DNA of 21,319 bases. It comes from an uncultured bacterium (GTDB taxonomy: Bacteria; Schekmanbacteria; GWA2-38-11; J061). The position numbers and the translations under genes were made by a program. The stretch is from the NCBI GenBank assembly GCA_964549305.1, contig CAZJVM010000043.1, positions 1 to 21,319 on the forward strand, given 5' to 3'. This document shows positions 7,725-16,534 of the stretch, piece by piece; within the stretch, counting starts at the first letter, position 1; each line of letters opens with the position of its first letter. The notes below the pieces were generated by a model. It saw only the letters and a list, made by a program, of their open reading frames with translations. It searched no databases and was not told the DNA's origin.

Positions 7725-7741
7725 TGTCGGATTTTTAGACA
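7725..7741. promoter_or_regulatory. Putative sigma-54 activator binding site (UAS1, PEP-CTERM gene)
   Basis: TGTCGGATTTTTAGACA = TGT-N11-ACA; overlaps a 23-bp direct repeat (7714-7736 / 7779-7801). Confidence 0.75.
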
Positions 7742-7789: not shown

Positions 7790-7806
7790 TGTCGGATTTT
7801 TGAACA
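7790..7806. promoter_or_regulatory. Putative sigma-54 activator binding site (UAS2, PEP-CTERM gene)
   Basis: TGTCGGATTTTTGAACA = TGT-N11-ACA, 65 bp from UAS1. Confidence 0.75.
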
Positions 7807-7900: not shown

Positions 7901-7916
7901 TGGCATAGAATGTGCA
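7901..7916 (+). promoter_or_regulatory. Sigma-54 (-24/-12) promoter
   Basis: TGGCATAGAATGTGCA: GG (7902-7903)-N10-GC (7914-7915), 47 nt before the ATG of the PEP-CTERM gene. Confidence 0.75.
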
Positions 7917-7961: not shown

Positions 7962-8978
7962 ATGAAAAAAATATTATCATTTATTGCAATCATACTAATT
8001 ATCTTCTGTGTAATTGGGATAGCAGTTAATGAGTCTTCTGCCCTAACCTACGACTTCATACCTATTAATGACCTTCCGGGCGGGACTGGAAATTTTATGC
8101 CTTACGGAATAAATGACAACGGACAGATTGTCGGCAGAGACAATTTAGAGGGAAAAAGTTTTCTTTATGATTTCAATACGGCTTCCTATTCGTGGATAAT
8201 ACATCCTGACTCTAAAAATTACGGCGGTTATAACTATACTAATGCTTACGGGATAAACAATGATGGGATTGTGTCCGGATATTATGGTTCAAAAACCCTC
8301 GGTGGAGACCGTGGTATGTTTTACGACTCAAACACTGACACATACAGCACATTTCAGAATGCTGCACCCGGCTCAGTCTGGACAGACGGATATGGAATAA
8401 ACGAGCTCGGTGAAACCGTAGGAAGAAGCCACGGTTCCGGTGCATATAAGTCTGACGGAACAACATTTACTGACCTTACCAATTATCCGGGATATCCGTG
8501 GGGTGCCGCCAACACTCTACCCTATGATGTAAATGATACAGGTCTTGTAGTAGGGATTTTCGAAGCTTGGCGATTTTATCCGGGTGAAAATATTCAGAGT
8601 GTCCTATACGATTCCTTTAGCCAGACATATGACGAAATAAGACATCCCGGAAGTACCTCAACATATCTTTATAACATTAACAATAGTAATACTGCCGTTG
8701 GAAATTACTCTTCAGATTTTGAATCAACATTTCACGGAATACTTTATGATTCTGACAACACCGCCTTTTATACTGTTGACTATACAGGAGCATCGAAGAC
8801 AACAATTTACGGCATTAACAATAACAACTGGATTGTAGGTTTTGCTTCAGGCGGAACAGCAGGATGGGGAAAAGGTTTTGTCGGAATTCCTCAAACTGAA
8901 CCGGTCCCTGAACCATCATCGTTTTTGCTCCTAATATCAGGCATTGCCGTAGTGATTAACATTCGGAAAAAAAATTGA
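7962..8978 (+). CDS. PEP-CTERM sorting-domain surface protein with HAF-like extracellular repeats
   Basis: AGGAG SD; signal peptide; six YGINxxGxxVG-type repeats; C-terminal VPEPSS + hydrophobic helix (FLLLISGIAVVINI) + RKKN. Confidence 0.93.
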   Translation: MKKILSFIAIILIIFCVIGIAVNESSALTYDFIPINDLPGGTGNFMPYGINDNGQIVGRDNLEGKSFLYDFNTASYSWIIHPDSKNYGGYNYTNAYGINNDGIVSGYYGSKTLGGDRGMFYDSNTDTYSTFQNAAPGSVWTDGYGINELGETVGRSHGSGAYKSDGTTFTDLTNYPGYPWGAANTLPYDVNDTGLVVGIFEAWRFYPGENIQSVLYDSFSQTYDEIRHPGSTSTYLYNINNSNTAVGNYSSDFESTFHGILYDSDNTAFYTVDYTGASKTTIYGINNNNWIVGFASGGTAGWGKGFVGIPQTEPVPEPSSFLLLISGIAVVINIRKKN

Positions 8979-14398: not shown

Positions 14399-14415
14399 TG
14401 TCGGTTTTTCAGACA
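14399..14415. promoter_or_regulatory. Putative sigma-54 activator binding site (UAS1, peptide/lipoprotein unit)
   Basis: TGTCGGTTTTTCAGACA = TGT-N11-ACA; near-identical to 7725-7741. Confidence 0.75.
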
Positions 14416-14460: not shown

Positions 14461-14477
14461 TGTCGGTTTTTTGAACA
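14461..14477. promoter_or_regulatory. Putative sigma-54 activator binding site (UAS2, peptide/lipoprotein unit)
   Basis: TGTCGGTTTTTTGAACA = TGT-N11-ACA; one difference from 7790-7806; 62 bp from UAS1. Confidence 0.75.
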
Positions 14478-14561: not shown

Positions 14562-14578
14562 TTGGCATAGAAATTGCT
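14562..14578 (+). promoter_or_regulatory. Sigma-54 (-24/-12) promoter
   Basis: TTGGCATAGAAATTGCT: GG (14564-14565)-N10-GC (14576-14577), close to the TGGCAC-N5-TTGCW consensus. Confidence 0.85.
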
Positions 14579-14631
14579 TGGAGTTATGGATAATCAGGAG
14601 ACTGAAACCAAATCGGGGGATTTGACTAAAG

Positions 14632-14787
14632 ATGAGTAAAAAAGATTTTGATAAGAAACCTGTAGAAGATAAAGAGAAAAGGAAGAAGCCATATTCTGAG
14701 CCAAAGATTACTTCCCATAAACCTCTGAAAAAAATCACGCTTATTACATCAACTCAAAATGTGCCGGGTGGCGCGTTTTTTTCCTAA
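14632..14787 (+). CDS. Small 51-aa protein with lasso/RRE-type leader motif (putative RiPP-like precursor); not in the ORF track
   Basis: Manual translation MSKKDFDKKPVEDKEKRKKPYSEPKITSHKPLKKITLITSTQNVPGGAFFS*; GGGGGA SD at 14615-14620; first plausible ORF downstream of the sigma-54 promoter. Confidence 0.7.
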   Translation: MSKKDFDKKPVEDKEKRKKPYSEPKITSHKPLKKITLITSTQNVPGGAFFS

Positions 14788-14836
14788 ACACCCGAGTATT
14801 TTTCTCTTTTATCAAACTAAAAAGGTTTTCTCTTCA

Positions 14837-16534
14837 ATGCAAAAAAAAGGAAAAAATATTACATCTGTTACTGAATCCTCTTTCTTCCGTTATTTCGCGT
14901 TAATCATTATTTTTGCTTCATCCTCATTATTCTTTTCAGGATGCGGAGGCATCGATGAAACCTCATCGACAACACAATTCTCCAATTCCACGGACAAGAT
15001 AAACAATAAGGAAAAGACCGGTGAAAAAATTCTTATTGAAAGCTATAAAGTTAGCGTCAACCTCGACAACCTGACAATGAGTTTCTCGCCGGCAAGCGAA
15101 AAGAAAGATGATTTTTCCTACAAATCAAAAATAACATCACAGTTGAGATTCAGGAGCGTTCCGTCGTGGGACAGCATTCAGAAGATTCTCTCGGGAAGTG
15201 TCGCCATTACAAACAAGAATTCTTACGATACTCTTTATGACTCCGAGTTAAGAGTGGAATCCGTAACACCATCGTCGGTAAGCGTCTCGAACGAAGACGG
15301 CATTTCCGGCGCCAATCCCTATCTTTATTACGGCACGATTCAGGGAAACAGCGATACGGGGGTACGGGTGCTCAAATTCCACGATCCTTCGTCGGTAAGT
15401 TTTTCATTCGTTGTCAACCTATACGCAAATCTTCTTCCCGGAGGTGACGGCATATTTACCGAAGACACGAGTTTCCCCGGAGGCGCATCCAATACACGTG
15501 CCGTCGCGGGAGGGGAACTTTCCGGCAACGGGCAATCTGATGTACTCTTCGGTAACTTCGGTGAGCTTAACAGACTTCTTGTAAATCAGGGTGGAACTTC
15601 ATTTCTCGATGAATCGGCACAGAGAATCCCATCGACATCTTACTTCACCTCATCGCTGAAAAGCGCAGACATTGACGGCGACGGAGACAGGGACATAATC
15701 GAAACAAACAGTACAAATATACCGGGCGATACAGTGCACATAATGGTAAATGACGGAAACGGAAATTTCACCGACGAATCGGCGCAGAGAATAAACATCG
15801 CTTCTTCCCGTTACACTCAGGATTCCGCAGTGCAGGATATAGACGATGACGGCGACCTTGACATCTTTACCTGCAATTCGCTTGAAACGGACAACAGGAT
15901 ACTGATTAACAACGGCAACGGTTTCTATACCGACGAAACATCTTCAAGACTTCCGGCAGGTATCAACAAATGCAACAAGGTGGAAATTGCCGATTTTTCC
16001 GGCGATGACAAATATGACATTTTTCTCGCGCAGGACGGTAGTGCCAAATTTAAACTTTTAATAAACGATGGCAGTGGAAATTTTACTGATGAATCATCTT
16101 CAAGACTACCGGCGGACACGGCTAACAATTTCGACATATGTGCCGGTGATTATGATGGAGACGGAGATACAGACATTTTTGTGGCAAACGAAAACAACAA
16201 CGGAAATCAGGACAAACTTCTCATAAATAACGGCACGGGAGTTTTCACCGACGAAAGCGCCACGAGACTTCCGCAAATCAGCGATTTCAGCCTTGGTTGC
16301 GTAACGGCAGACTTTGACAACGACAATGACCTCGATATCTTCGTCGTAAACTACGGCACGCAAAACAGAATGTATCTAAATAACGGTGCGGGCGTCTTCA
16401 CAGACGTTTCCTCCTCATCACTTCCCGCTGACACTTCACTCAGTCTCGATGTTTTTCTCTATGATGTGGATAAAAACGGTACTCCCGATATCATCATAGG
16501 GAACAATAACCAGAACACTCTTTTGTTAGACTAA
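14837..16534 (+). CDS. Lipoprotein with FG-GAP/VCBS-like seven-bladed Ca-binding beta-propeller
   Basis: Hydrophobic stretch and lipobox FSG-C; Ser-rich N-terminal domain; repeated F.DES..R(I/L)P followed by D.D.DGD.DI units. Start moved to ATG 14837 because 14759 overlaps the small ORF. Confidence 0.88.
   Translation: MQKKGKNITSVTESSFFRYFALIIIFASSSLFFSGCGGIDETSSTTQFSNSTDKINNKEKTGEKILIESYKVSVNLDNLTMSFSPASEKKDDFSYKSKITSQLRFRSVPSWDSIQKILSGSVAITNKNSYDTLYDSELRVESVTPSSVSVSNEDGISGANPYLYYGTIQGNSDTGVRVLKFHDPSSVSFSFVVNLYANLLPGGDGIFTEDTSFPGGASNTRAVAGGELSGNGQSDVLFGNFGELNRLLVNQGGTSFLDESAQRIPSTSYFTSSLKSADIDGDGDRDIIETNSTNIPGDTVHIMVNDGNGNFTDESAQRINIASSRYTQDSAVQDIDDDGDLDIFTCNSLETDNRILINNGNGFYTDETSSRLPAGINKCNKVEIADFSGDDKYDIFLAQDGSAKFKLLINDGSGNFTDESSSRLPADTANNFDICAGDYDGDGDTDIFVANENNNGNQDKLLINNGTGVFTDESATRLPQISDFSLGCVTADFDNDNDLDIFVVNYGTQNRMYLNNGAGVFTDVSSSSLPADTSLSLDVFLYDVDKNGTPDIIIGNNNQNTLLLD

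Follow-up and report, generated by a model that had tools for sequence, protein, structure and literature searches.

A conserved 51-residue peptide of Schekmanbacteria as a candidate trans-encoded precursor for a lasso-type radical SAM maturation system without a cyclase

Given a short open reading frame (ORF) whose N-terminal part resembles the leader of a lasso peptide precursor, while its C-terminal part holds no residue from which a lasso ring could be closed, we wondered whether such an ORF encodes the precursor of a modified peptide at all and, if so, which enzymes might act on it. The ORF lies at positions 14632..14787, stop codon included, of the forward strand of contig CAZJVM010000043.1 (assembly GCA_964549305.1) from an uncultured bacterium of the Schekmanbacteria, a stretch of 21,319 nucleotides that we analyzed as a whole and refer to as the window; all window features below are on the same strand. 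An earlier note, made from the letters of this stretch, had described a precursor of the RiPP type (peptides made on the ribosome and modified after translation) with a lasso-type leader and a non-lasso core. Our comparison points, with a probability of about 0.62, to the precursor of an undescribed modified peptide, whose leader would be handled in the lasso manner by a B1 protein, a kinase, a radical S-adenosylmethionine (SAM) enzyme, and a B2 peptidase encoded in trans, without formation of a lasso ring. The testable parts of the earlier note were upheld by this comparison, except that the core is not variable, as it had expected, and that curated profile models do not recognize the family; it had also overlooked the pairing of the peptide gene with a lipoprotein gene.

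The first issue is whether the 51 codons constitute a gene. The ORF starts with ATG, and its translation is the sequence given in the earlier note. A paralog in the same genome (G000) sits at one end of G000:C26, likewise behind GGCAT-N5-TTGCT, and further copies are found in a family-level relative (G002, four copies, two of them in tandem) and in an order-level relative (G003, one copy). When 5.8 billion proteins were searched with a profile, 25 relatives of 51 to 59 aa emerged, one of them labeled Candidatus Schekmanbacteria, and 1.84 billion cluster representatives yielded 17, including more distant, GC-richer forms. Overall, the family comprises about 40 relatives, most of them from Candidatus Schekmanbacteria, and the alignment on which the following statements rest holds 35 sequences. 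Comparing seven copies over 33 aligned codons, the proportion of nonsynonymous differences (pN) was 0.11 to 0.39 in 21 of 21 pairs, with a proportion of synonymous differences (pS) of 0.63 to 1.1, which is saturated; the invariant Ile, Thr, Leu, and Gly residues are each written with three or four different codons across these copies. The 51-codon ORF is thus a real gene under strong purifying selection, and a chance ORF is rejected because of the same-genome paralog, the database relatives, and this constraint at the codon level. Searching the contig library with a peptide alignment yielded no confirmed further locus, and 13 loci from a degenerate DNA pattern search of genome contigs were discarded, as they proved to be chance matches once translated.

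The signals upstream of the gene are also largely those proposed at the outset. A σ54-type promoter motif, TGGCAT-N5-TTGCT, lies at 14563..14578, 69 nt before the start codon, and is the sole match in the window (0.04 expected; at least one match in 4 of 100 shuffles); a motif of this type is located 63 to 79 nt upstream in four of the seven Schekmanbacteria peptide copies. The Shine-Dalgarno sequence that had been noted is present in weak form only, as a GGGGGA at 14615..14620, 11 nt from the ATG, whereas the paralogous peptide genes have GGAGG nearer to their start, at 4 to 8 nt. Farther upstream, the word TGTCGG-N8-ACA occurs twice (14399..14415 and 14461..14477) as a candidate site for an enhancer-binding protein; the window holds four matches where 0.10 are expected, a number reached in 0 of 100 shuffles, and comparable TGTCG..ACA words can be read by eye upstream of the peptide copies in G000:C26, G002:C12, and G003:C37.

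We then asked whether the peptide is built like a precursor. In the family alignment, Pro24, Thr36, and Gly46 are invariant, and conservation reaches 90% or more at Leu32, Phe49, and Phe50; the first approximately 17 residues are variable, rich in Lys and Glu, and free of any hydrophobic signal segment. If cleavage takes place after Leu37, residues 1 to 37 (14632..14742) form the predicted leader, in which Tyr21 (14692-14694) falls at −17, Pro24 (14701-14703) at −14, Ile26 (14707-14709) at −12, and Thr36 (14737-14739) at −2. Across the family, these positions hold Y/F, P, I/L (or V), and T, and the interval from Pro24 to Thr36 shows zero indels, with its spacing fixed in 35 of 35 sequences. 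This is the lasso-type spacing that had been proposed for a cut after I-T-L, and the alignment bears it out. In work on the Bsf lasso peptide (PMC10368454), the Y-x-x-P-x-L motif is described as invariably occupying −17 to −12, with the last but one position of the leader, −2, usually taken by Thr and rarely by Ile or Val. A homologue of the window peptide (P0004) has lasso precursor families as its nearest named Atlas clusters (scores 0.76 to 0.78), which we treat as a lead only; the window peptide itself is not present in the Atlas.

What follows the leader is a predicted 14-residue core, ITSTQNVPGGAFFS (14743..14784), with Ser at core position 3, Gly46, and Phe49-Phe50. In most relatives the core reads F-T-S-T-x-N-V-x-G-G-x-F-F, with a length of 13 to 14 residues. 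The absence of Asp, Glu, and Cys that had been pointed out for the window holds for the family consensus as well, and therefore neither a lasso ring nor a thioether is possible. The expectation that Y-x-x-P and Thr(−2) would be conserved while the core varies was only half right: Pro24 and Thr36 are invariant, but no part of the peptide is better conserved than the core.

Could the product nevertheless be a true lasso peptide? The leader spacing fits, B1 and B2 proteins are encoded in the genome (see below), and the window peptide matches the lasso precursor model NF033528 weakly (E 0.042, 13.8 bits). However, an Asp or Glu acceptor at core positions 7 to 9 is absent from all 35 members, and no asparagine-synthetase-like lasso cyclase gene was found adjoining B1/B2 or the precursor. 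Homologs of PF00733 are located on different contigs, or at a distance of 23 kb from another cluster, with scores of 287 to 299 bits, like ordinary AsnB. Since the acceptor residue and the cyclase, both defining features, are missing, we rejected a canonical lasso peptide and, unless some novel acceptor chemistry is at work, give this explanation virtually no weight.

Which enzymes, then, would mature the peptide? The other window ORFs of at least 100 aa that were scanned are housekeeping genes (FtsY, RodA/FtsW, aminotransferase, SAM decarboxylase, GatA/B, and ribosomal proteins), and among the scanned ORFs of this size there is no RiPP recognition element (RRE), peptidase, or cyclase, just as the earlier note had stated in arguing for processing in trans. 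The genes that such processing would call for were found elsewhere. All five Schekmanbacteria genomes searched (G000 to G004) carry an operon of four genes, encoding a PqqD protein (approximately 95 aa), an HprK-related kinase (approximately 330 aa), a radical SAM enzyme (approximately 337 aa), and a B2 transglutaminase-like peptidase (approximately 140 aa), the last of which is interrupted by an assembly gap in G000. The PqqD protein, which corresponds to B1, matches PF05402 with 63.5 bits; its best NCBIfam match is the lasso PqqD chaperone, and its nearest solved chain is the lasso RRE TbiB1 (5v1u, E 2.3e-12). The B2 protein reaches 55.1 bits on NF033537, where the cut-off is 33, and its Cys and His are invariant, as is the P-loop of the kinase. 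The radical SAM enzyme contains CxxxCxxC, C-x13-G-x4-C-C, and CxxC motifs, a cysteine pattern that we take to be that of SPASM/twitch domains, which hold the auxiliary clusters of peptide maturases. A nucleotidyltransferase gene is missing from the operon, and so is a precursor gene: a scan for [YWF]xxPx[LIVMF] in ORFs of 20 to 130 aa in and around eight operon loci returned off-frame junk only, the intergenic gaps within and around the operon are not long enough for a precursor gene, and a search of metagenomes with a kinase alignment found four loci, each with the same precursor-less operon. The genes for the precursors, one to four per genome, lie apart from this operon. The genome search suggested at the outset was thus answered for PqqD, B2, radical SAM enzyme, and kinase, but not for an asparagine synthetase of the lasso kind.

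To connect a precursor and an operon that do not adjoin, we exploited their distribution across 401 genomes, with E ≤1e-40, fixed in advance, for the radical SAM ortholog and E ≤1e-3 for the peptide profile. The ortholog was found in 15 genomes and the peptide in 18, with both in 10 (G000, G002, G003, G014, G022, G183, G191, G304, G335, and G342). The one-sided Fisher test gives P = 4.5e-12, or 2.5e-9 without the Schekmanbacteria, figures to be read with the caveat that related genomes are not independent and that the 10 genomes fall into six GTDB families. Of the seven genomes outside the Schekmanbacteria that have both, six (G014, G183, G191, G304, G335, and G342) were also searched for the kinase, B2, or both, and every one of these searches was positive, the genes often being located on other contigs; the B2 match of G183, at 30.6 bits, is under the 33-bit cut-off. 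In the eight genomes with a peptide match only, the match is weak and confined to the leader.

Several arrangements bring the two partners physically together. In G304, the gene of a peptide that matches the profile runs into the beginning of the radical SAM ortholog, and a lipoprotein-like gene comes next; this peptide has W-x-x-P-x-L, Thr at −2, and a Gly-rich core ending in S-T-V-F. In G352, of an unrelated lineage (contig G352:C61, L084 1188-3966), a complete cis cassette consists of an HprK-like kinase, B2, a 58-aa precursor, the radical SAM ortholog, and PqqD, the precursor having Y-x-x-P-x-L, Val at −2, and a core that starts with G-F-S and ends with T-V-F. As this precursor is too diverged for the profile, the co-occurrence count is conservative. 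In G022, G342, and G191, the gene order is PqqD, lipoprotein, peptide, and G022 and G342 have a second cluster of kinase, radical SAM enzyme, large secreted protein, and B2. Compared with the G352 cassette, the Schekmanbacteria have the same B1, B2, HprK-like kinase, and radical SAM enzyme, the difference being that the precursor is inside the cassette there and encoded elsewhere here. All four enzymes of a cyclase-less, lasso-type radical SAM cassette are present in the Schekmanbacteria, with a full (G352) and a partial (G304) relative in cis.

These observations can be assembled into a route of maturation. Residues of approximately 18 to 37 would act as a lasso-type leader, with the Y-x-x-P-x-I segment being bound by the trans-encoded PqqD-type B1. 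The HprK-like kinase would probably phosphorylate Ser3 of the core, and the radical SAM enzyme, with its auxiliary-cluster cysteines, would modify the core, plausibly at the conserved Gly-x-x-Phe-Phe C-terminus, which we regard as the likeliest site because the precursors linked to this orthogroup share a [ST]-[FV]-[FY] ending. The B2 cysteine peptidase would then cut after Thr(−2)-Leu(−1) and free a peptide of 13 to 14 residues. Our observations extend to the gene and how it is conserved, the spacing within the leader, the operon, the co-occurrence, and the gene adjacencies; the suggested binding by B1, site of cleavage, phosphorylation, chemistry of the radical SAM enzyme, export, and role of the lipoprotein are our interpretation of them.

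A number of results weigh against this route. Recognition by lasso-leader hidden Markov models, to which the earlier note had looked for a check, failed: only 5 of the 35 members match NF033528, with a best E value of 0.036 and all of them far below its 33-bit cut-off, and none of the family members matches a Pfam lasso family, which means that the curated lasso precursor models miss this peptide family. Of the four operon proteins, B2 alone reaches its curated NCBIfam cut-off, and no maturase gene adjoins any Schekmanbacteria peptide copy. The operon is present without a detected peptide in G001, a 97% complete genome (370 contigs) of the same genus as the window's, and in G004, which is 70% complete, and the radical SAM ortholog occurs without a peptide profile match in G080, G133, and G352, the last having the diverged precursor described above. 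Antimicrobial RiPPs do not usually have so highly conserved a core. Co-folding of the window peptide and the PqqD protein from G000, also proposed in the earlier note, gave ipSAE values of 0.49, 0.49, and 0.51 (0.00 for the best of three controls), with a partner pLDDT (predicted local distance difference test) of at least 53 and a contact agreement of at least 92%; this is in favor of binding but falls in the weak support band, and the score may only reflect likeness, because lasso RRE-leader complexes have already been solved.

Finally, G000 has five PqqD matches, and three more clusters of PqqD and radical SAM enzyme, confirmed by Pfam, could hold the true partner. The first of these (G000:C28, L069 176-5952) comprises PqqD, a radical SAM enzyme, a 290-aa protein, an S24 peptidase, and NTP_transf_5, plus an ABC exporter, and resembles the clusters of linear polyphosphorylated peptides (LPP) with an extra radical SAM enzyme. 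The second (G000:C10, L070 4525-8278) has an HprK-like kinase, PqqD, a radical SAM enzyme, and a 72-aa ORF, with a divergent NTP_transf_5, and the third (G000:C27, L071 441-6795) a PqqD::radical SAM/SPASM fusion, a 393-aa protein, a C25 peptidase, and an S24/S26 peptidase. If the peptide were a RiPP precursor matured by one of these systems, the cut would be expected after Thr36. As given in the LPP paper (PMC13381572), the leader motif YxxPxVLxHQxIxFETxxS aligns with the window peptide at Tyr, Pro, a hydrophobic residue, His, and Thr; LPP are cleaved after that Thr and phosphorylated at Ser3. On the other hand, the co-occurrence and the two cis-encoded cases rest specifically on orthologs of the radical SAM enzyme from the B2 operon. 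A Thr plus one residue before the cut fits B2 and not a cleavage of the SpI type, and the His is confined to the window's subfamily, most members having Tyr there. We thus consider maturation by another PqqD system of G000 to be unlikely and retain the B2 operon as the preferred machinery.

How does this proposal compare with known systems? Phosphorylated lasso clusters of the paeninodin, pseudomycoidin, and Bsf types comprise A, B1, B2, C, and an HprK-like kinase, sometimes with a nucleotidyltransferase and an ABC exporter; in the Bsf case (PMC10368454), BsfK phosphorylates Ser3 of the core. Shared with the window system are the leader spacing, a discrete PqqD-type RRE, the B2 Cys/His peptidase, the HprK-like kinase, and Ser3 of the core. 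In contrast to those clusters, the window system has no Asp/Glu acceptor and no cyclase, the operon containing a radical SAM enzyme instead, its precursors are unlinked, multi-copy, and paired with lipoproteins, and the core sequence is conserved, not variable.

A second comparison is with the LPP themselves (Popov et al., Nat Commun 2026; PMC13381572), described in that paper as a cyclase-less lasso relative with an RRE and an HprK-like kinase. Their gene set holds an SpI/SipW-type leader peptidase, RRE, HprK-like kinase (LppK, which phosphorylates Ser3), NTP transferase, and MsbA-like exporter. Both systems have an RRE, an HprK-like kinase, Y-x-x-P, a Thr conserved at a distance of 15 residues past the Tyr, and Ser3 of the core (phosphorylated in LPP), and both have no cyclase. 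With regard to the leader motif, Tyr, Pro, the hydrophobic residue, His (in part of the family), and Thr match, but F-E-T is missing from the window peptide. Particular to LPP are a peptidase of the SpI/SipW type that cuts after Thr(−1), the lack of radical SAM enzyme and B2 in the core set, long and variable cores of approximately 45 aa, and a restriction to Bacillota. LPP clusters are embedded in loci for envelope polysaccharide (capsule) according to that text, and three of the peptide copies here follow glycosyltransferase arrays.

Like the systems for pyrroloquinoline quinone (PQQ; PqqA, PqqD, and PqqE) and SynChlorMet (TIGR04248-04251), the proposed one brings together a short peptide, a chaperone of the PqqD type, and a radical SAM enzyme that has auxiliary clusters, and its core is conserved, as in PqqA. 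The operon proteins score 44.5 bits with ScmD, 84.1 with ScmF, and 15.8 with ScmC, where the curated cut-offs are 100 to 400 bits, and 60 bits with PqqE (cut-off 381). Unlike in these systems, the gene set includes a B2 peptidase and a kinase, and there is no Glu...Tyr pair: the Glu-x3-Tyr arrangement of PqqA is not conserved in the family, with K-K-I-T-L-I in the window peptide and E-D-I-T-L-F in most relatives. A search of the literature outside subscription journals found no description of a lasso-type system with HprK-like kinase, PqqD, and radical SAM enzyme, and the Schekmanbacteria literature, judged by its titles, concerns ecology or metabolism.

We next turn to the gene that accompanies the peptide. 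Starting 49 nt past the peptide gene, an ORF at 14837..16534 encodes a lipoprotein of 565 aa (FG-GAP_3, 156.7 bits) with a signal peptide, Cys36 in an F-S-G-C lipobox as identified by eye, an N-terminal β-sandwich domain, and subsequent FG-GAP repeats. The longest ORF in this frame (14759-16534) would overlap the last codons of the peptide; a protein with signal peptide and lipobox results from the start codon ATG at 14837. No terminator-like site was found between the two genes of the window. A lipoprotein gene lies 48 to 75 nt downstream of the peptide at five of five Schekmanbacteria loci with assembled downstream DNA; at the sixth locus, G000:C26, the contig ends before the downstream gene. 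G014 and G335, from another lineage, have the same order of peptide and lipoprotein as the Schekmanbacteria. The precursor and lipoprotein genes are probably co-transcribed, several of them from σ54 promoters.

The constancy of this pairing raises the question of whether the peptide might be an unmodified small cytoplasmic protein that serves the lipoprotein, for instance as a chaperone or partner, its leader-like motif being a structural β-strand. The adjacency at the five assembled Schekmanbacteria loci and in G014 and G335, the strongly conserved core, and the lack of an adjacent maturase would all agree with such a role. However, the peptide has no signal peptide although its partner is exported, and homology to the lipoproteins of other phyla could not be detected (no BLAST hit; hhalign probability of 79% over only 34 columns). 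Moreover, this explanation needs the lasso spacing, the enzyme co-occurrence, the adjacency to PqqD in three genomes, and the position before a radical SAM gene in two to be coincidental, which makes it improbable in our view.

Alternatively, the ORF could be a regulatory upstream ORF, encoding a leader or arrest peptide that tunes lipoprotein expression. It is short, it ends close to the lipoprotein gene, whose start is 49 nt away with no intervening terminator, and its extreme C-terminus, beside the stop codon, is conserved. This does not sit well with the three lineages in which the peptide is encoded downstream of the lipoprotein gene, nor with the hairpin and T-run of its own that can be seen by eye after the peptide in G014 and G022; tandem copies exist as well, and the N-proximal Y-x-x-P motif would be left without a role. 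We therefore regard a regulatory upstream ORF as very unlikely. In terms of sequence, these sites at G014:C22 (L065) and G022:C41 (L066) are a GC-rich hairpin plus T-run directly past the peptide stop, and no such hairpin/T-run site was found after the window peptide copy.

Returning to a modified peptide released by B2, the unlinked precursors, their pairing with lipoproteins, and the σ54 promoters together indicate that the product probably acts with or on an envelope protein. It is tempting to speculate, although we rate this as a tentative and rather doubtful extension, that the modified peptide is a stoichiometric partner of the neighboring lipoprotein (a ligand, a cofactor-like prosthetic peptide, or an anchor) and not an antibiotic, with one precursor per lipoprotein paralog, one shared maturation machine, and induction of the pair by a σ54 activator. 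This would be loosely analogous to PQQ and its periplasmic β-propeller enzymes and, if true, would constitute a new RiPP class with trans-encoded precursors. More generally, the conserved core, the one-to-one pairing with lipoproteins in several deep-branching lineages, and the σ54 control speak for a physiological role in the envelope and less for an antibiotic.

What is new here are trans-encoded, multi-copy, lipoprotein-paired precursors of an uncharacterized radical SAM branch of the lasso-type machinery. If the proposed maturation is correct, leader handling by B1 and B2 serves a second chemistry, in which a radical SAM enzyme replaces the ring-closing cyclase, and also reaches precursors that are dispersed around the genome. 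Mining tools that seek precursors only beside maturases would miss such systems, and the peptide family supplies the enzyme cassette with a candidate substrate.

Some further observations concern the surroundings of the peptide genes. The lipoproteins paired with the peptide in G002 and G003 are approximately 1050 aa long and have no Pfam matches; the N-terminal part of the window lipoprotein is 28 to 32% identical to them (E 1e-6 to 1e-10). The predicted structure of this N-terminal domain is a β-sandwich (pLDDT 74.7), and a Foldseek search against the PDB returned only generic matches to β-sandwiches or proteins resembling carbohydrate-binding modules, with a best TM score of about 0.4. The domain recurs at the C-terminal end of a subtilisin-like S8 protease (L118, G001:C290) and inside an RHS/YD-repeat protein (L119, G004:C111), and it is therefore a mobile surface-protein module of the phylum rather than peptide specific.

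Three peptide copies (L019, G000:C26; L015, G002:C12; L018, G003:C37) are located directly downstream of membrane-protein arrays. Each array consists of three to four paralogous membrane proteins of 570 to 730 aa, with a conserved N-proximal Y-D-D loop and C-terminal TPR repeats, and is preceded by genes for a GT2 glycosyltransferase, a DUF2304 protein, and a MurJ-like flippase. In the membrane proteins, Pfam finds the TPR repeats only; we assume a resemblance to GT-C enzymes of the PMT/TMTC type.

Lastly, the upstream elements of the peptide gene have counterparts elsewhere in the window. A second pair of TGTCGG-N8-ACA words is found at 7725-7741 and 7790-7806, followed by a σ54-like TGGCAT-N5-GTGCA at 7901-7916, upstream of a gene (7962-8978) for a secreted protein of 338 aa with a weak match to DUF3466. 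This gene and the peptide-lipoprotein pair may be members of one regulon.

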